Source: Longimicrobiales bacterium | GTDB lineage: Bacteria; Gemmatimonadota; Gemmatimonadetes; Longimicrobiales; Gaopeijiaceae | Direction: 5' to 3' | DNA: 64,000 nt | Assembly (NCBI GenBank): GCA_965198065.1 | Contig: CBDAON010000004.1 | Span: 1,568,001 to 1,632,000 of the forward strand | Shown here: piece by piece, positions 18,827-28,418 of the stretch | Layout: each line of letters starts with the position of its first letter | Position numbering within the stretch: position 1 is the stretch's first letter | Notes under the pieces: generated by a model | Told to the model about the DNA's origin: nothing | The model's input: only the letters and a program-made list of their open reading frames with translations | Databases searched by the model: none | Position numbers and translations under genes: made by a program

Positions 18827-20170
18827 TCAGGGATCGGGCGGAGCCCTCCGCAGGCATTCGGGGCAGTAGCGCCAGCCGCGCCTCAGGACCCGACCGCAGA
18901 TACACGCCTGCACCCTGCACCATCCGCAGTAGGGGCAGCCCCGACCGTCTCTCGGTACGCTCCCTCCGCAGCGTACGCAGGGAAGCGACTCGCCGGGATC
19001 CTCCCGGAGCACGCGTGCCACCTCGTGAAGCGTCGTGACCCCCTCGGACACCTTCCGCCGGGCGTTCTCGGCCATTGTGGCCATTCCGGCTTCCTCGGCC
19101 AGGCGCCGAAGCTCCCCGCCGGCCGCGCCTCTCGCGATGGCGTCCCGAATGCCCTCCGTGATGGTGAGCACCTGGAAGACCCCGATCCGGCCCCGATATC
19201 CATGATGACAGGCGGGGCACCCGGCGGGGTGCCCGTCGCAGCGGCGGCGGCTGCGCCGGATCAGCCGTTGGGCGACGATGCCCGAGAGCCCTCCGGCCAG
19301 GAGGTGCGGCTAGACCCCCATCTGGAGCAGGCGGGTGATCCCCGAGGGAGCGTCGATCGTGTGGACGGTCGACAGCACGAGGTGGCCCGTGACGGCCGCG
19401 GCCATCGCGATCTCGGCGGTCTCCCGATCGCGGATCTCCCCAATCATGATCACGTCCGGATCCTGCCGAAGCACGGAGCGGAGCGCCGAGGCGAACGTCA
19501 GACCCGAAGCCGGATTCATCTGCACCTGGTTCACGCCGGGGACGCGGTACTCGACCGGGTCCTCCAGCGTGACGACGTTCGAGGCCACGCGGTCGACCTC
19601 GCCGAGGGCGCCGAATAGGGTTGAGCTCTTCCCGCTTCCCGTGGGGCCGGCGGTGAGGACAACGCCCCGTCCGCCGCCAACCAGGGCGCGTACGCGGGAG
19701 AGGTCCTCCGGGGAGAACCCGAGGTCGGAGAGGTTCGCTGGAACCGCGCGCGGGTCGAGGAAGCGTAGGACCGCCTTCTCGCCTCCCTCGGCGGGGAGGG
19801 TCGAGACGCGGATGCTCAGGGACCGCCCCCCGTGAACGAACGGGAGCCCCCCGTCCTGGGGGCGTCGCTTGACCGAGATGTCCATCCCGGCCAGAACCTT
19901 GATGTGGGAGAGCACGGAGGCTCGCGCCCCCACGGGAAGGTCGGCCACCTTCTGGAGGACGCCGTCGATCCGCTCTCGCACGACGAGCTCTCCGGGGCCG
20001 TGCTCGACGTGCAGGTCGCTGGCGCCCGCGTCCACGGCGCGCCGGAGAAGGAGATCCACGACGCGAACCACAGGGGCGCCGGTAGGGTTGTCGTAACGGG
20101 CCTCCGGCTTCGCCGCTGAGGCCGTGCGGTCGGGACCGGAGGGAAGGGCGCGAGCTAGATCGGTCACCTC
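18827..20170 (-). pseudogene. GspE/PilB-type ATPase, 3' part (separated from its 5' part by an insertion; in-frame TAG at 19310-19312)
   Basis: ASDLHVE, PQDG, GPTGSGKSST, TLEDPVE, LRQDPDVIMIGEIRD, TGHLVLSTVH; MGV*PHLLA..AQRL continues in frame to a C-terminal double Zn ribbon. Confidence 0.88.
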
Positions 20171-20180
20171 GCTGACCGGG

Positions 20181-20546
20181 ATGGCACCGACCGCAGCCCT
20201 CTCGCCTGGCCGCTTCGGGAAACTGTTTCGTGGCGGCATGAGTGGCGGCGGCATGGGCGCCGGTGTCGTGAGTCCGACGATCGTGGGGAACACCGCGACC
20301 GCCGAGAACCTCTTTCCCGGCGCCGGCGTTCGGGCCGAGGGTCCCGGGGGCGGCGGGTTCTTCGACGGGATGAACGAGCTCGAGAAGGCATTCCTTCTCA
20401 CGGCGGGGCTGGGCACCATAGCCGACATCGGCGGCGGCATCTACGACCGCGTGAAGCAAAGCAAAGACGAGAAGCGGGAGCGCGAGCGAAAGGACCGGGC
20501 TGGCCGGTCCATATCAGCCGTCCTCAGCCGGCCGAGGAGCTACTAG
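20181..20546 (+). CDS. Small Gly-rich phage protein, putative ejection/internal virion protein (possibly 5'-truncated)
   Basis: Gly-rich stretch, hydrophobic AFLLTAGLGTIADIGGGI, charged C-terminus; first gene of the cassette. Confidence 0.5.
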   Translation: MAPTAALSPGRFGKLFRGGMSGGGMGAGVVSPTIVGNTATAENLFPGAGVRAEGPGGGGFFDGMNELEKAFLLTAGLGTIADIGGGIYDRVKQSKDEKRERERKDRAGRSISAVLSRPRSY

Positions 20547-20549
20547 GAG

Positions 20550-21398
20550 ATGGGTATCGGGGCGGTGCTGGGCGGCGCGGCCGAGGGAGCCGGGCCGGGA
20601 CTCGGCCGGTTCTCGAACGCCCTCCTCCAGGTGATGGGCTCTCAGCAGCAACGCCGCGGCATGGAGGAGCAGCGGGAGTTCAGGGCCTCCGAATCCGCGT
20701 ACCGCCGGCATCGTGACCAGGTCAGCGACGCGGCCAGCCGTGAGGCCCTCGATCTCCAGGAGCGCACCCTCGAGGCGAGGACGAGGGATGCGGACCGGAG
20801 CTTCGCTCATGCTCTCCGAGCGGGTGGTTGGGATTTCGACTATCACCCCGAGGGGGCGCCCGCCCCGGCGTCCTCCATGACGATCGGCCCCCCGCGTCCC
20901 ATCGTCGGCCCCGGGGGAGGACCGGCTGCGGAGCCGGCGGCCGCGGGCGAAGGCATGAAGTTCGAGCTCCCCCCCCGCCAGGGCGTGGGCGACCGAATCT
21001 CGCGCCGGTTCACGGTCGGAGACTACAACCCCGACCAGGACCCAGCCCTGCAACGCCGGCTTCGAGAGATCGAGGCGACCGCGGCCGCGAGGCCCGGGCC
21101 CGCAGGCCCGACGATGTCCGTCGGAGGGATGACGGCGCCGACCACCCCGGCGGGCCGCGCCACCATCGAGGACCACATGAACTGGCGGTCGTCCCTGCCC
21201 GGCCAGACGCCGGCCGGAGCTCGGGACCCCGCGCGGGATCAGCTCCTCATCGGTGGAGCTCTCGCCCGGATGCAGGGTGAAGACGGTGAGATCGACTATC
21301 TGCGCCTCGAGTCCGTCCTCGACGAGCTCCGCCGGCGTCCCGGCGTGACGAACGACGACCTGGACCTGATTCGGGATCGCTTCACCCGGCAGTACTGA
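20550..21398 (+). CDS. Putative phage ejection protein
   Basis: AGGAG RBS; Gly/Ala-rich N-terminus followed by a Q/R/E coiled-coil-like stretch; TGATG coupling to the giant gene. Confidence 0.55.
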   Translation: MGIGAVLGGAAEGAGPGLGRFSNALLQVMGSQQQRRGMEEQREFRASESAYRRHRDQVSDAASREALDLQERTLEARTRDADRSFAHALRAGGWDFDYHPEGAPAPASSMTIGPPRPIVGPGGGPAAEPAAAGEGMKFELPPRQGVGDRISRRFTVGDYNPDQDPALQRRLREIEATAAARPGPAGPTMSVGGMTAPTTPAGRATIEDHMNWRSSLPGQTPAGARDPARDQLLIGGALARMQGEDGEIDYLRLESVLDELRRRPGVTNDDLDLIRDRFTRQY

Positions 21399-24300
21399 TG
21401 GCCTCGCACGACCCTTGGGACGCGCTCTTCGGAGCGGGAGAGCTGGGCGAGCCCGGAGCTCCCACGGCCACCGCTCCTCCCGCCGGCTCTCCGGACCCCT
21501 GGGACGATCTCTTCGGAGCTCCCGCCTACGCCCCGCCGCCGGCCGCGCCCGAAGAGCCCCGCATGTCCATCGGCGCGCGGATCTCCGCGCCGTTCAGAGC
21601 AGGCTGGGAAGGGCTCAGGCGCGGTAGTGTCGCAACGGTGCCCGAGCTCGCGGGCAACGTGCTCGAGCAGTTCGGAGCGGAGGAGCTCGGTGGCCGCATA
21701 GAGGCGGGCGCCGAGCGGCGCGGGTCACGGTTGGCCGAACAGTGGGAGAGCCCGCAGTTCCGTGACGCCCCCGTCTCGTGGCTGGCCGAGAACCTCGGAC
21801 AAGCACTGCCCACGACGGTCCCGTCGATCGCCGGCGCAGCCGTCGGCTCCTTGCTCGGTCCGGCCGGCACGATCGCCGGCGCCGCCATCCCCGCCTACCT
21901 GATGGGTGTCGGCGACATCCGGGGCGAGCTCGAGGACGCGGGCATGGAAGAGGGCGCCGGCATGAGTGCCCTCACCCTGGGGGGAGCCGTCCCCTACGCG
22001 GCGGCCGACATCCTCATGCCCGCCCGTGTCGGGCGCGCGCTGGCGAGCGGCGGGGCCAAACGTGGATTCGGGGCGATGTTCCGCGCCGCGATGCGCGGCG
22101 GCGCCGAGGAGACGTTCGCGGAGGGTGCGCAGTCCCTCGTATCGCAGGGCGCGGCCGCGGTCGGCACCGGCCAGGAGATCGACCTCCGCCGGATCGGTGA
22201 GGAAGCGGTGCGCGGCGGCGCTGCGGGCGTCTTCCTCGGTGGCGGCGGCCAGGCGGCGGCATCCGTGCTCCCTGCCCGCGATACCGCCGACCCGTCAGCA
22301 GACCCGGGGGCCGCCCCCACCGCGCCCCAGAGAGACGAGGACCCGTGGGACTCCCTACCCGGCCACCCCGGCGGTCCCGGAGGCCGTACAGGACGACGTC
22401 GTGGCTCCGCCGGCGGCTCCCGAAACGGAGCTTATGCCAGAGGAGGCCGCACAGAATCTTCCGCCTGTAACTGAATCTGAAACAGAAACAGGCCCTGCAG
22501 TTTCTGAAACGCCCACGTGGGCCCGGGAGTCGATCGTCGACGAGGATCCGGACCAGGCTCCGGCTCCCCCCGAGCGCCGACAGCGTTCGATCTTTCCCGG
22601 GGACGACCGGAAGGTCGAGACCGAGTACACCGTGGTCGAGGCGGACCGGCTCAAGGCCAGTCACACGGCGAATTACGCGCAGCGGGCGCCCGAGGAGTTC
22701 CCGGCCGAGATCCAGGGCCGTGCCTATCACGGGCAGCGCGGCCGCCAGGCGCGCGAGCACACCGAGCAGATCGTGTCCGGCTTCGATCCGGACCGGGCGC
22801 TGGACCGGACGTCGTCGGCTGCCGAGGGCCCGCCGATCGTGACGCCGTCCGGGGTCGCGGTGGCAGGCAACGGCCGGATTATCGCGCAGCAGCGCCTCTA
22901 CGAGAGCGCCCCCGAGAGGGGAACCGAGCTGAAGGGTGCGCTCCAGGAGCGGGCGGCGGACTTCGGGCTCGATCCTGCCCAGGTCGCCGGTATGGAGCGG
23001 CCCGTCCTCGTCCGGCGGATCGTGGACCCCGAGGTGGACGTCACGAACGTCGAGCAGCTCCGCGAGCTCAACGCGAGCTCGGACCAGCCCATCGGGAAGA
23101 CGAAGGATCCGCTCTCGGAGGCGCAGGGGAAGGCGGCGCAGTTCCGCGAAGCCCGGGGGGCTCTCGACCACTTCGCGGCCACGGCCGATCCGGACGCGAC
23201 GATCCGGTCCTACCTGGGGACCGGGTCGGGGCGCGACTTCCTGGGCGAGCTCGTCGACGACGGGGTCATTTCCAAGGGGGAGCGGGCCCGATTCGCGGAC
23301 GCGACGACGGGGGTGGCCACCGAGGAGGGGCGCCAGCTCATCGAGCGGATGTTCTACGTGGCGGCGATCGGGGACCCGGATGTGATCTCGCGCGCGCCGC
23401 CGGCCGTGCTCCGCAAGCTGGACACCTCCCTACCGGCGATCATCCGCGCGGACCGGATCGGTGGCGGCTGGGAGATCGGGCCGCTCGTGAGGGAGTCGCT
23501 CGACCTTCTGGCGGGGGCGAGGGCGGGCGACATGAATCTCGACGACCTGGTCGCTCAGCGCGACTTCACCCGCCCGGCTCCCGACGAGCACGTGGTCGAG
23601 ATGGCCCGGTTCCTCGAGAGCGGGAAGGCCAACGTCCGCGACGCCTTCCGGGCCTACGCGAACCAGGCGGAAGCGTTCACCCGGGGCACCGCGTCCGACG
23701 ATCTCTTCGGGTTCGAGCCGGCGGGCCCCGAGGAGTCTCAGTCCATCTTCGGGAAGGCCGCGCTCGCGCCACGTGGCGATCCGCGTACGGCGCTCAGGCA
23801 GATGCTTTCCTTGCCGGGCGAGCCCTCCCAGGGGTCGGCGGCCGAGCCCGAGCGGATCTTCGGCCGGCGGGAGGAACGGGAACGCCAGGAGTGGGAACGG
23901 CTCGGCGAGGGCCTGTCCGAAGAGGATGCGGCCACCAGAGAGCGGATGTTCCCGTTCATCGCCAAGGCGCGGGAGAACCAGAAGCTGCAGTTCAGCGAGG
24001 AGGAGCTCGCGGCGGCCGCCGGCCGGGAGCAGCGCAGCCCCTACGATTTCCTAGAGACCAGGGCTGCGCGTGAGCGGGCCGCCAACGCTCCGCAGGACAC
24101 GTACCTGATAGACACTCCGGAGCGGCTCACGCTGCGCCGTAAGATCGCCGACCTGCTCTACAACACCCGCATCGCGGCGCGGAAGCGGGAGAAGCGGGCG
24201 TTTGTGGTCATCGGGCCCGCCGGCGCCGGCAAGACCCGGGTCGTCTCCGGCCGGCTCATCGACGAGCATGGCGCCCTCGAGATCGACGCCGACCTGGCCA

Positions 24301-27300
24301 AGCCTCACCTGCCGGAGTACGAGGGCGGCATCAACGCCAAGGGCGTCCACGTCGAGTCTTCCCTGATTGCGGAGGAGCGCGTGATGTCCCAGGCACTGGC
24401 GGCCGGCGACAATATCGTGCTGTCGAAGATCGGTAAGAACACCGCCTCCATGAAACCCATCCTCGACCAGCTCAGGGAAGCCGGGTACGTCACGGATCTC
24501 TACCTGGTCGATCTCGACCCCATGCTGGCCGCCGGTCGGGCGCTGACACGCTTCTACGAGGGTGGCCGGTTCGTCGACCCGGTCTATGGGATCGAGGATG
24601 TCGGCCGGAAGCCCCAGCAGACGTTCGTCGACTTGAAGAGCGATCCGGCTGTCAGTAGATTTACTTGGTTTGACAACGATGTGGAGAGGGGGCAACCGCC
24701 CCGCCTTGTAGAGGAAGGAAAGAATGGCCAAGCGCGATCCGATGGACTTCTCTTTCGCGAAGGGCCTCAAGCGGGAGGACTTCGAGAGGGACGGGATCCT
24801 GGACCTGGAGGGTATGGCCGACGCGGCCGCGGAGCTCGGGAGGAAGGCGGACCGGGCCGACGCGGCGAAGGAGAAGGCGGCACAGCAGTAGGTCCGTCCG
24901 CAGTACATCCGCTGGCCCCCACCGCCGAGGTATCCGAGCAGCTCCGTAGCGCCGGCACGTTCGCCGAGGGCACATCGATGGAGGCGCCCAAGGCCACGGC
25001 CATCGTGCGCGATCTCCAGAAGGTCCTGCACGTGCAGCTCGAGGGCCTGAAGGTCTCCGAGGGCAAGCTCCAGAAGCGGGGCATCTTCCGCCGGGCTCTC
25101 GCACAGGTGGACCCCCGGGCCCAGGTCGTACGCGCCGTCTCCCTCTCCGACGTCGCCTCGATCGGCCACGAGTACGGCCACCTCATGCAGAAGCTCCTCC
25201 TGGGCGCCTCGGAGGCCGGGGGGATCGACAACGCCACGCTCGCGCGCCTCCCGGGGGCCGTGCGCGGCGAGCTCCAGGACCTTGCCCAGGGGATCAGCAA
25301 CGAATCGCTCACCGAGGGATGGGCCGAGTTCTGGCGGATCTACCTGGACAACCCCGACACCCTCGGGACCGAGGCGCCCAACGTGCTCAACCACGTCGAG
25401 GGCCTCCTCGAGACCCACCCGGCCGTCAGGAACGCATGGACGGACGCCCGTGAGCAATGGAAGCTGCACCGCGACGCCTCGCCCCAGGCCAGGGTCCGGA
25501 GCCACATATCGGTCGGAGAGGGCGATCCGGACGCGCTCTCGATCGACGGTAAGTGGATGCGGTTCCGAACGAACGTGCTGGACGACTTCGAGGCGATCCG
25601 GAAGGTGGTCGCCCATGTGCGGGAGCGGACCGGCGACGAGCTCACCATCGCGGAGGACGTGGAGACGCTCGCCAGGCTGTCGCGCGGTGCGTCCGGGATC
25701 GCCGACATGTTCATCGGCGAGAAGCAGGGCGACCGCTTCATCGGCGGTCAGGTGGACTTCGGGACGCTCGAGCGGAGGCGGAAGAGCCTGACCGAGATCC
25801 TAGACCCCGTGGAGGACCAGCTCGACGACTTCCGCGATTACATCGTGGCCAGGCGCGCGCAGGAGCTCCACGGACGCGATCTCCTCACCGGGATCCGGGA
25901 CGAGGACGTCAAGTGGACGATCCGTCACCTCGAGGACCGCTACGGCGAGAGCTTCAAGCCGGCCTTCGACGAGCTTCAGGAGTACAACAAGGCGCTGCTT
26001 CGGTTCCTCGTCGACTCGGGTGTGATTTCAGAGGAGACCTTCGACCAGATCGTCGAGGTGAATCAGAATCACGTGCCGTTCTACCGGGTCCGCGAAGGGG
26101 GAGGCGGAGCCCTCGGCGCCGGATCCGGGTTCGGGACGCTCTGGAGCCCGGTCAAGCGGTTCAAGGGCAGCGGCCGGGACATCATCGACCCGCTCGAGAG
26201 CATCCTCAAGAACACGTACAACTACGTCCAGGTCGCACAGAACCAGCGAGTCTCGACCGCCCTCGCGAGCCTGGCCGAGAAGCCGGGCGTCGGCGACCTC
26301 TTCGAGCAGCTCCTCACGCCGATGAAGCGGCAACAATTCACCGTCGGGGAGATCGAGAAGGACCTGAAGGAATCCGTTCCCGGCTACGAGCAGCTCCTCG
26401 AGAAGCTCGAGAAGGCCGGCGTCGACCCGAGCTCGGAGCTCTTCGCCGTCTTCCGGCCGGGTGACTACCACGGGAAGGAGAACACGATCTCCGTCCTGGA
26501 GGAGGGGAAGCGGAAGTGGTTCGAGGTCGACCCCGAGCTCTACAAGGCGCTCGAGGGCCTGAACACCGAACAGCGTGACGCTTGGGTGCGGGCGATGTCC
26601 GCGCCGGCGCGCTGGCTTCGGGCCGGCGCCACGCTCAACCCCGCCTTCATGATCCGTAACTTCATACGCGATCAGCGCATGGCGTTCGTCCAGAGCGAGC
26701 ACGGGTACCGACCCGTCTGGGATTTCGCGCTCGGGGTCTTCGAGGCGGTCAAGAAGGGCGAGACGTACGAACAGTTCATGGTTTCCGGCGCGCACCGCGG
26801 GACCATGCTCGGTCTCGACCGGGATTCGCAGCAGCGCAACCTGCAGAAGCTCTTGAAGAGCGACGGTGTGCCGAACGTCCTCAAGAATCCGCTCGACATC
26901 CTGCGGGCCTTGTCCGAGCTGTCCGAGACGGGCACACGGATGGGCGAGTTCATGCGGGCCCGGGAGAAGCTCGGGGAATCGGGGGAGGCGCTCCAGAAGA
27001 GCGGTGCGGCCGCCCGGGAGGTGTCAGTCGACTTCGCCAGGCACGGTGCTAAGACGACCGCGCTTAGGGGGATGGCGGCTTTCTGGAACGCGCGGATGCA
27101 GGGCTACGACCGTTTGGGGCGCGCGGTGAAGAAGAGTCCCGTGAAGTTCATGGCGACGACGTTCGGTGCGGTGACGCTCCCCTCCATGCTCCTCTACTTC
27201 GTCAACCGTGACGAGCCGGAGTTTTGGGAGATTCCGCAGTGGCGGCGCGATCTCTTCGACATGGTGAAGGTGAACGACACCTGGCTCAGCATCCCGAAGC

Positions 27301-27938
27301 CGTTCGAGCTGGGGCTCTTGTTCGGGACGCTCCCGGTCCGCGTGCTCTCGGCGATCGAGAACACTCCCGGCGGTTCGGAGGAGCTCCGGAGGTTCTTCGA
27401 GGACACGCTCTCGAAGGAGCTGACCTCGATCGGGCCGGCGCCGACGGCCGTCATGCCGCTCATCGAGAACCTCACGAACTGGAGCTTTTTCCTCCAGCGG
27501 CCGATCGTGCCACGGAGCGAGGAGAACGTCCGCGACCGCGAGCAGGGGAACGAGCGGACTTCCGAGATCGCGAAGCTCCTGGCCCGGTGGTCGCCGGGCC
27601 CCGAGGGGATTTCTCCCCGCTCGATCGACAACCTCCTCTATTCGTGGACGGGAGGACTCGGCCGCCTCGCAAGCCGTGGGGTGGACCTGGGCGTCGACGT
27701 CGCTACGGGGAAGCCCCCCGGGCCGACCAGGCAGGCTGCGGACTATCCGGGGATCCGGGGCGTCACCATCCGCACACCCGGGCTCTCGTCAGAGTCCGTC
27801 GAGCGCCTCTACCGGGAGCTCGCGAAGGCTCGCACCGCTCGGGCCACGCTGCGCCACTTCGAGCGCGAGGGCCGCACGGAGGACTTCGAGCGTGAGGCCA
27901 GGGACCCCGAACAGGCGGAGCTCCGGGCACAGGCAACC
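21398..27938 (+). CDS. Large polyvalent protein (~2180 aa): Gly/Ala-rich N-terminus, DdrB-like ParB domain, zeta-toxin-like P-loop kinase, HExxH metallopeptidase-like region, LPD38; +1 frameshift near 22358 and 3'-truncated
   Basis: YTVVEADRLKASH/PIVTPSG..VAGNGR/PVLVRR (~22620-23020); GPAGAGKT..IDAD..HVESS..GRFVDP (~24200-24580); GHEYGH (25164-25181) with EGWAEF; IPKPFELG..ISPRSIDNLL..WTGGLG (~27220-27665). Confidence 0.78.
24633..24661 (+). promoter_or_regulatory. Internal sigma70-like promoter within the end of the zeta-toxin domain
   Basis: TTGAAG (24633-38), 17 bp, TAGATT (24656-61) in a locally AT-rich patch, 62 bp upstream of the nested ATG. Confidence 0.55.
24724..24891 (+). CDS. Nested +1-frame 55-aa protein MAKRDPMDFSFAKGLKREDFERDGILDLEGMADAAAELGRKADRADAAKEKAAQQ; candidate antitoxin/immunity protein
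   Basis: GAGGAAGGAAAGA RBS before ATG; 51 of 55 codons end in G/C in this frame, while the host frame becomes A/T-ending and G/R-rich; below the ORF track length cut-off. Confidence 0.7.
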   Translation: MAKRDPMDFSFAKGLKREDFERDGILDLEGMADAAAELGRKADRADAAKEKAAQQ

Positions 27939-28418
27939 CCTCGTGTACGCTGCCCGGAGGCCCTCCTGGAGCGCCGACGGCGTAGCTACGGCCGCTGCGA
28001 CCCTACGGCCGCTCTGGAACTGGAGGTCGTCCACAGTCGAGAGGTCGAGCGGGTCCTCCATGGCGACGAGGAGCGAGCGCCCGGTGAGGCGCAGGGGGAG
28101 TACCCTTCGCCTGCGCGCGAACCCGGCGTTGACGAGCCTCAAGGCTTCGGCCCCGGGCCGGAGGGGCCCGGCCTCGAACGGAAGCCCGAGCTGCCTGGCC
28201 AGGGTGCTGGCGACCTCGTCCTCGCCAGCGACCCCGAGCCGGGCAATCACCGCGCCGAGCCGCTCTCCGGATTCGCGTTGCGCCGCGAGCGCCCGCTCGA
28301 GGTCGCGGGGCCGGAGTGTCCCCTCCTCGACGAGGAGCGCGCCCAGCACGCGCGTTTTCGAGTCGGCGGCGTCGGGGAGGGCGGTCCTGGGGGCCACGCC
28401 GGACGATAAGGACGCCAC
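27939..28418 (-). pseudogene. GspE/PilB-type ATPase, 5' part (MshEN/T2SSE_N domain)
   Basis: Tandem MshEN-like motifs RVLGALLVEEG..LERALAAQ and RLGAVIARLG..LARQ, then VAMEDPLD..DDLQFQSG..LRAAY; ends at the insertion. Confidence 0.85.

Follow-up and report, generated by a model that had tools for sequence, protein, structure and literature searches.

A small +1-frame gene nested behind the zeta-toxin-like kinase domain of a giant phage polyvalent protein: a candidate inhibitor exchanged together with its domain

Introduction

In the operons that encode the toxin-antitoxin pairs epsilon/zeta and PezAT, the antitoxin gene comes first. Partner genes may also share the same stretch of DNA, as in the Rz/Rz1 spanins of phage lambda, where one phage gene contains the whole of a smaller gene in its +1 frame and the two products are partners; these are lysis lipoproteins, unrelated in sequence and role to the pair described here. 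Excerpts of Jamet et al. (2017; PMC5576092) report a small ORF behind 89.4% of 191 muf toxin genes of temperate phages, and an excerpt of PMC5491322 places the AvrRxo1 gene upstream of its small inhibitory partner Arc1. Passages of Iyer et al. (2017; PMC5512222) mention a zeta-like kinase among the domains of polyvalent and MuF-fused proteins, and they predict virion packaging. The main text of that paper never uses the word 'overlap', and no partner gene of the kinase is suggested in these passages. A literature search of titles and the beginnings of abstracts, with subscription papers largely outside it, returned no description of nested partner genes in polyvalent proteins.

We analysed a 64,000-nucleotide stretch of DNA from a Longimicrobiales bacterium (the window), which encodes a giant protein with the same domain set (zeta-like kinase, DdrB-ParB, MPTase, LPD38) and the same phage context as the polyvalent proteins in the passages of Iyer et al. 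(PMC5512222). As with the MuF toxins in the excerpts of PMC5576092, its toxin domain is carried by a phage and has a small ORF behind it, and a homologous zeta domain in one surveyed locus (L061) sits downstream of MuF sequence. However, those MuF toxins are C-terminal and are followed by an ordinary downstream gene, whereas the window domain is internal and its partner is overprinted in the +1 frame. The AvrRxo1/Arc1 pair, as described in the excerpt of PMC5491322, resembles the window in having the kinase gene first and the small partner next, and AvrRxo1 is delivered to another cell. It differs in that AvrRxo1 is a type III effector and NAD kinase and that Arc1 is a separate gene and not a nested one. 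In comparison with epsilon/zeta and PezAT (excerpts of PMC3062530, PMC5923241 and PMC10532202), the window domain has the same fold, the Walker A lysine and the equivalent of Asp67 (D65 here), but Glu116 and Thr118 are replaced by Ser and Ile, the domain lies within a giant protein, and the partner is a 55-residue peptide that matches no Pfam family.

Results

The giant phage polyvalent protein gene spans positions 21398-27939 on the plus strand of the window and combines several conflict domains in one polypeptide, including the phage-type LPD38 and DdrB-ParB. On the giant ORF (21966-28409, 2147 codons), Pfam placed ddrB-ParB at residues 213-352, Zeta_toxin at 738-874 and LPD38 at 1751-1929, and an HExxH motif was read from the translation. 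Comparison with other contigs and with homologs corrected the first-pass annotation of this DNA: the true start lies at 21398, the copy of the gene in this strain has a frameshift near 22360 (absent from the X3 contig and the homologous protein P0002), and its 3' end is cut at ~27940, from where the frame reads on through antisense host DNA to 28409. The gene belongs to a 7768-bp phage remnant (20172-27939) inserted in a minus-strand host gene of the pilB/gspE type. One X2 contig shows the empty-site joint of 20171 to 27940, an MshEN domain lies at 27792-28418, and the ATPase-like reading, judged by eye, resumes below 20171. P0002 has the same chimeric C-terminus, indicating that the insertion is common to relatives. 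A scan of 22 ORFs outside the giant gene detected no head or packaging family and no capsid, portal or terminase. Since the element is a remnant in this strain, virion delivery would not happen here. An AT-rich, strain-variable segment at 22420-22530, with the inverted repeat CAGAAAC...GTTTCTG and a low giant-frame GC3, is a possible operator or promoter.

The zeta-toxin-like P-loop kinase domain is encoded at 24099-24722 on the plus strand (Pfam PF06414, E 5.5e-11). Numbered from 24099, it contains the Walker A lysine K45, the catalytic D65, and R147 and R151, and its structure was modelled with a pLDDT of 95.4. The closest solved folds in Foldseek were AvrRxo1, PezT and zeta, at E about 1e-8 and all three solved with their antitoxins. 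AvrRxo1 was the top match (E 8e-9, TM 0.71-0.73, 20% identity), and TM between the model and the toxin folds of epsilon/zeta and PezAT was 0.69-0.78. The catalytic lysine and aspartate are intact in 91/92 homologs. With its P-loop kinase fold, Walker A lysine and catalytic aspartate, the domain belongs to the zeta/PezT kinase family. The zeta segment E116-G-T118-G-R120 aligns with S-K-I-G-K in the window domain, and the equivalent of Thr118, Ile here, is Thr in 11/100 representatives of the family. An excerpt of PMC3062530 describes contact of zeta Thr118 with UNAG. Thr118 and Arg120 are not kept in the window domain, and because Thr118 is not kept we do not file the domain as a UNAG 3'-kinase. 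The substrate of the kinase is probably not UNAG bound as it is in zeta, and the presence of the domain in archaeal viruses would also point away from UNAG. A separate zeta clade (SH-aLRT 99; L051, L053-L055, L058, L060, L061, L063 and L068) lies at protein C-termini and mostly has D-G-T in place of the E-G-T of zeta; an acidic helix begins the genes that follow it, and some of these genes have a Cys-rich domain.

Directly behind the domain, at 24724-24891 on the plus strand, lies a 55-codon ORF that runs from ATG to TAG in the +1 frame relative to the giant ORF. A Shine-Dalgarno (SD) sequence, GAGGAAGG (24711-24718, plus strand), stands 5 nt upstream of the ATG and overlaps the final codons of the zeta domain (E-E-G). 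The +1 frame is shut 5 codons upstream of the ATG by an in-frame TAG (24709-24711). The ORF has G/C-ending codons at 51/55 positions, and the GC3 of the giant frame falls to 0.40-0.47 at 24696-24875, compared to ~0.9 in most of the gene. The ORF, its ribosome binding site and its codon count, all part of the first-pass annotation, were thus re-derived from the sequence. The codon log-likelihood ratio of the +1 over the giant frame, scored with the codon usage of the giant gene itself, was 57.9 over the nested ORF, and none of the other 338 windows of 55 codons in the gene exceeded -6.4. Over 19500-26321 (run X1) and 20144-26321 (run X2), contigs from one sample, possibly the source sample of the window, aligned to the window without a single difference or gap; a 151-nt piece from a different sample (X4, 24642-24792) matched exactly across the start of the nested ORF. 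The two compensating indels that could have made this frame part of the giant protein, named in the first-pass annotation as a possible refutation, are therefore absent. Initiation signals of its own, selection acting in that frame and an open host frame are characteristic of an embedded same-strand overlapping gene; the region has all three, and it is almost certainly a real hidden gene.

The nested peptide matched no Pfam family at E 0.1, no PHROG family and no entry of the ESM Atlas. It showed no detectable likeness to the epsilon/PezA-type antitoxins invoked in the first-pass annotation, and its gene follows the toxin. A phmmer search with the peptide gave 10 matches, of which one, the 55-residue P0016, is a true homolog and two others examined are repeat proteins; a search with P0016 recovered P0016 itself only. 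No terminator was found. The predicted shape, taken from the homologous peptide of locus L002, is a short and a longer helix (pLDDT 51-66).

The closest complete counterpart is L005, from another genus, which keeps both promoter hexamers and their spacing, the SD (GAGGAGGG, in the same place as GAGGAAGG), the ATG and a 56-residue homolog, with frame 0 open. Indels between the window and L005 within the nested ORF are multiples of three. The peptides of L005, L002 and P0016 are 31-48% identical to the nested peptide, with P0016 at 51% in the phmmer match. The linkers of the proteins P0002 and P0003, from which +1 products can be inferred at the protein level, are compatible with a homologous peptide, scoring 30.8 and 47.1 compared to maxima of 26.1 and 26.6 in 500 shuffles; frame 0 is open across the homologous or compatible +1 peptide in L005, P0002 and P0003. 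Peptides outside the clade of the window showed no significant similarity to the window peptide (E 0.36 or worse). In public data, gene callers had recorded 4/8 tested homologous peptides with the predicted starts, the window peptide not being among them. The expectation that standard gene callers would miss the gene is thus true for the window copy and too broad for its homologs. In the same genome, L002 (G000:C4:1484959-1488516), which lies upstream of a helicase-like ORF, is by eye a second relic that has been rearranged and contains three zeta C-terminal pieces. Behind one of these pieces, a peptide homolog is joined in frame, N-terminally, to another zeta domain. AlphaFold modelled the peptide of this natural fusion as helical (pLDDT 51-66, pTM 0.76), with docking that was not readable. 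Relic copies of the small gene (the second copy in L002, L009/L011) are decaying, and a reading of them as orphan immunity genes was dropped, the cases being few and several of them decayed.

We surveyed the family using three collection scans, which yielded at least 150 loci (for the viral collection, the best 80 of 114); a single-protein scan of viral contigs found nothing. With genome matches, 156 loci formed 100 clusters at 80% identity, comprising 72 internal domains (giant frame open for at least 60 codons past the domain), 27 terminal domains and 1 that was too short. Nested genes were counted in the 70 internal representatives with enough training sequence, as an SD with an ATG or GTG and an ORF of at least 25 codons at the zeta C-terminus, and compared with a null of synonymous-codon resampling at fixed amino acids (300 draws). 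Such a gene was present in the +1 frame in 45/70, compared to 12.1±3.0 in the null (maximum 19 in 300 draws), and in the +2 frame in 0/70; the loci are related, and the counts therefore overstate independence. An open +1 frame with a ribosome binding site is thus a feature of most of these homologs, as the first-pass annotation had required of its gene. The +1 frame was open in 60/70 (null 33.8±2.9). Along the gene, the 45/70 fall in the zeta C-terminal bin, with 5 or fewer in 38 of the 39 other bins and 12/59 in the remaining one.

The start of the nested ORF sits 59-65 nt inside the domain in most homologs, and its SD falls within K-E-G or E-E-G codons. Codons for Tyr or His followed by G create an ATG in 17/19 loci without an ATG at -65 and in 5/18 loci with one, a comparison in which kin are not independent; the alternative start sites complement each other. 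A quick-version tree, used for this purpose only, placed nested genes in several clades. The amphipathic moment of the peptides was weakly above that of shuffles (41/55, mean z 0.63). Roughly 7 internal domains keep their catalytic residues and yet lack a clear nested gene. In its place, L014 and L027 carry a helical tail in frame, an extra in-frame domain is present in L031, L042, L048 and L083, and nothing is evident in L039. The extra domain is ~120 residues long, without a Pfam match in the two tested, and is possibly a cis-acting inhibitor or a second effector. In marine phage homologs (L084, L092, L094, L099, L110, L124, L129, L139, L144 and L146) a second conserved +1 ORF with an SD lies behind a ParB-like domain, ~1.1-1.2 kb upstream of the zeta end; the GHxR motif of that domain was seen in L084 and L092. 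Nested +1 genes are thus not special to the zeta-like toxin.

We determined frame-specific selection in 11 close pairs. Pooled pN/pS in the domain was 0.18 in frame 0 and 1.39 in the +1 frame, while the nested region gave 0.89 in frame 0 and 0.53 in the +1 frame; among the pairs with differences in the nested region, 6/9 favoured the +1 frame and 3/9 did not. These ratios indicate that selection moves to the +1 frame over the nested region. The cultured haloviruses HVTV-1 (L166:3240, gene 115, NC_020158.1 position 69727) and HCTV-5 (L167:3240, gene 114, record 71916) carry an unannotated acidic +1 ORF of 39 and 44 codons, respectively, ~110 nt behind the zeta domain, each with a GGTG-type SD candidate upstream. 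Counted at the first, second and third giant-frame codon positions, substitutions between the two viruses number 4/6/50 across the domain, compared to 13/1/1 across the nested ORF. No nested gene was present in the stretch of cyanophage PSS2 that was read.

Comparison with relatives showed that the zeta domain and the nested gene lie in an exchanged block (23874-24864, plus strand), within which relatives differ and beside which the flanks are nearly identical. P0002 is 35-72% identical to the window protein over 23874-24833 and 93-100% identical in the flanking 40-residue blocks, and the X3 contig departs from the window sequence at 24019 and returns at 24864. Taken together, the patterns of P0002 and X3, one protein and one contig that may be the same allele, suggest that domain and small gene were swapped as a single block. 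Such exchange of a toxin and its partner between conserved flanks is the pattern of polymorphic toxin-immunity pairs.

The small gene also stays directly downstream of the toxin domain, as a nested ORF in 45/70 internal cases, as an overlapping ORF in 9/27 terminal ones (frame ending within 60 codons of the domain), and as a separate gene in others. In the 9/27 this +1 ORF begins within the domain and reads past the stop codon of the zeta frame; at zeta domains that lie at the end of a protein, the partner is a downstream gene or an in-frame tail. An acidic helix resembling DGED-x-TLD, in another clade, begins 7 downstream genes and forms one in-frame tail, a weak resemblance at 37% column identity. 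Complex prediction for domain and peptide gave 0.02, 0.50 and 0.01 in three runs, with a median below the 0.32 mark, and weighs neither for nor against binding. The first-pass proposal of a cassette holds as regards a nested gene tied to the zeta-like domain, which is conserved, selected, separately initiated and exchanged with the domain.

The candidate sigma70 promoter TTGAAG-17-TAGATT lies at 24633-24661 on the plus strand, within the zeta-coding sequence, and matches the consensus at 8/12 positions; a promoter scan with a threshold of 9/12 called no promoter there. Synonymous resampling produced a site as good in 1% of 300 draws, and the site is made of codons that are rare for their residues (AGT 2/91 Ser, AGA 1/162 Arg, TTT 4/66 Phe, ACT 4/87 Thr, TTG 5/158 Leu). 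L005 has identical hexamers and spacing, L002 has TTAAAA-17-TAGATT, L015 has a perfect TTGACA-17-TATAAT, and most homologs have a TATAAT-like box within T-Y-N codons. Promoter-like sites of at least 9/12 were modestly enriched (24/70 homologs, null 14.7±2.7), and those of at least 8/12 were not (36/70, null 30.6±3.1). The promoter proposed in the first-pass annotation is thus present and written in rare codons, but it falls below the scan threshold and has moderate family support. An internal promoter before the nested gene is plausible, not proven.

Discussion

The reading that we favour, with moderate confidence, is that the nested gene encodes a cognate inhibitor, an antitoxin or immunity protein, of the zeta-like kinase. 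Judged by its sequence, the locus has the anatomy of a toxin-immunity pair, with the partner overprinted behind an internal domain. The small gene occupies the +1 frame of the linker that follows the kinase domain, and is inherited and exchanged with that domain. Because the toxin domain is internal, an immunity gene directly downstream of it could be kept only by overprinting. An internal promoter would allow the peptide to be made independently of late-gene expression; the peptide would bind the kinase and protect cells producing or carrying the giant protein, and the packaged giant protein would reach a new host without the peptide. Excerpts of PMC4284463 list HVTV-1 and HCTV-5 as virulent and describe the role of their zeta toxins as unknown. 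Since these viruses are virulent, protection of the producing cell would be a more general role than protection of lysogens. The lysogen role put forward at first does not hold in general, virulent haloviruses having the same design and the window element being a remnant.

Three other readings accept the +1 coding signal as genuine. It is rather unlikely, in our judgement, that the nested gene is real and yet its product is a chaperone, a packaging or processing adaptor, an activator or another regulator of the domain and not a protective antitoxin, with the kinase perhaps harmless to the producer. The nested genes behind the ParB-like domain and the several intact domains without a nested partner would fit such a regulator, and with Thr118 replaced by Ile here, and Thr in 11/100, toxicity is not assured. 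On the other hand, the exchange as a block with a hypervariable domain and the direct downstream placement fit toxin-immunity pairs (as in the excerpts of PMC5576092), and the closest solved folds are toxins of toxin-antitoxin systems. A programmed +1 frameshift near the end of the domain, giving a shorter protein in which the helix is a cis-acting tail (auto-inhibition as in EzeT) and no separate product, appears improbable. Selection on SD and ATG, the TAG that shuts the window's +1 frame 5 codons before the start, and the lack of a shared slippery site in the aligned DNA (judged by eye) speak against it. The natural in-frame tails of L014, L027 and L060, the peptide homolog fused N-terminally to a zeta domain in L002 (a locus that is, however, a rearranged relic), and the in-chain antitoxin domain known from EzeT (excerpts of PMC10532202) speak for it.

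That the peptide is functional and independent of the kinase, using a permissive linker and acting on host or phage elsewhere, we regard as quite improbable. In frame 0 the linker evolves almost neutrally (pN/pS 0.89) and could therefore host any gene, but the partner stays behind the domain where there is no linker, in the 9/27 terminal loci and as separate downstream genes, and it is exchanged together with the domain. An artefact or chance origin, through a pair of compensating indels or a frame left open at random in GC-rich DNA, retains a negligible probability. The giant gene is indeed frameshifted elsewhere in this strain, and an open +1 frame by itself is expected from the linker amino acids in 95% of null draws. 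Against this, the contigs agree without gaps, frame 0 is open across homologous or compatible +1 peptides in L005, P0002 and P0003, indels between the window and L005 come in multiples of three within the ORF, and selection changes frame. The 45/70 count set against its null, the pN/pS shift, the gapless contigs and the halovirus substitutions together refute this reading.

The inhibitor reading, which we prefer, admits a wider and more tentative extension, which we would hold as a conjecture somewhat short of probable. Polyvalent proteins of phages and archaeal viruses may be strings of cassettes, each an internal effector with an overprinted, separately promoted inhibitor whose promoter, SD and start codon lie in the enzyme's own C-terminal codons. 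The zeta-like domains would constitute an uncharacterised clade of kinases that act on a new substrate, because the clade is also found in viruses of archaea that lack peptidoglycan, and the helical inhibitors of 40-65 residues would form an unannotated family. An overprinted inhibitor would be a possible answer to how a phage can make a protein that harbours toxic domains and yet spare the cell in which it is made. Annotation omits a layer of small genes within these giant ORFs, and the cultured HVTV-1 and HCTV-5, with their unannotated copies, make the question directly testable. If the inhibitor reading is true, the domain-peptide pairs would be new kinase-inhibitor modules. A G/R-rich dual-coding stretch was also seen by eye in L035, L046, L153 and L156-L162, where it apparently lies inside the zeta domain, before the last two strands.
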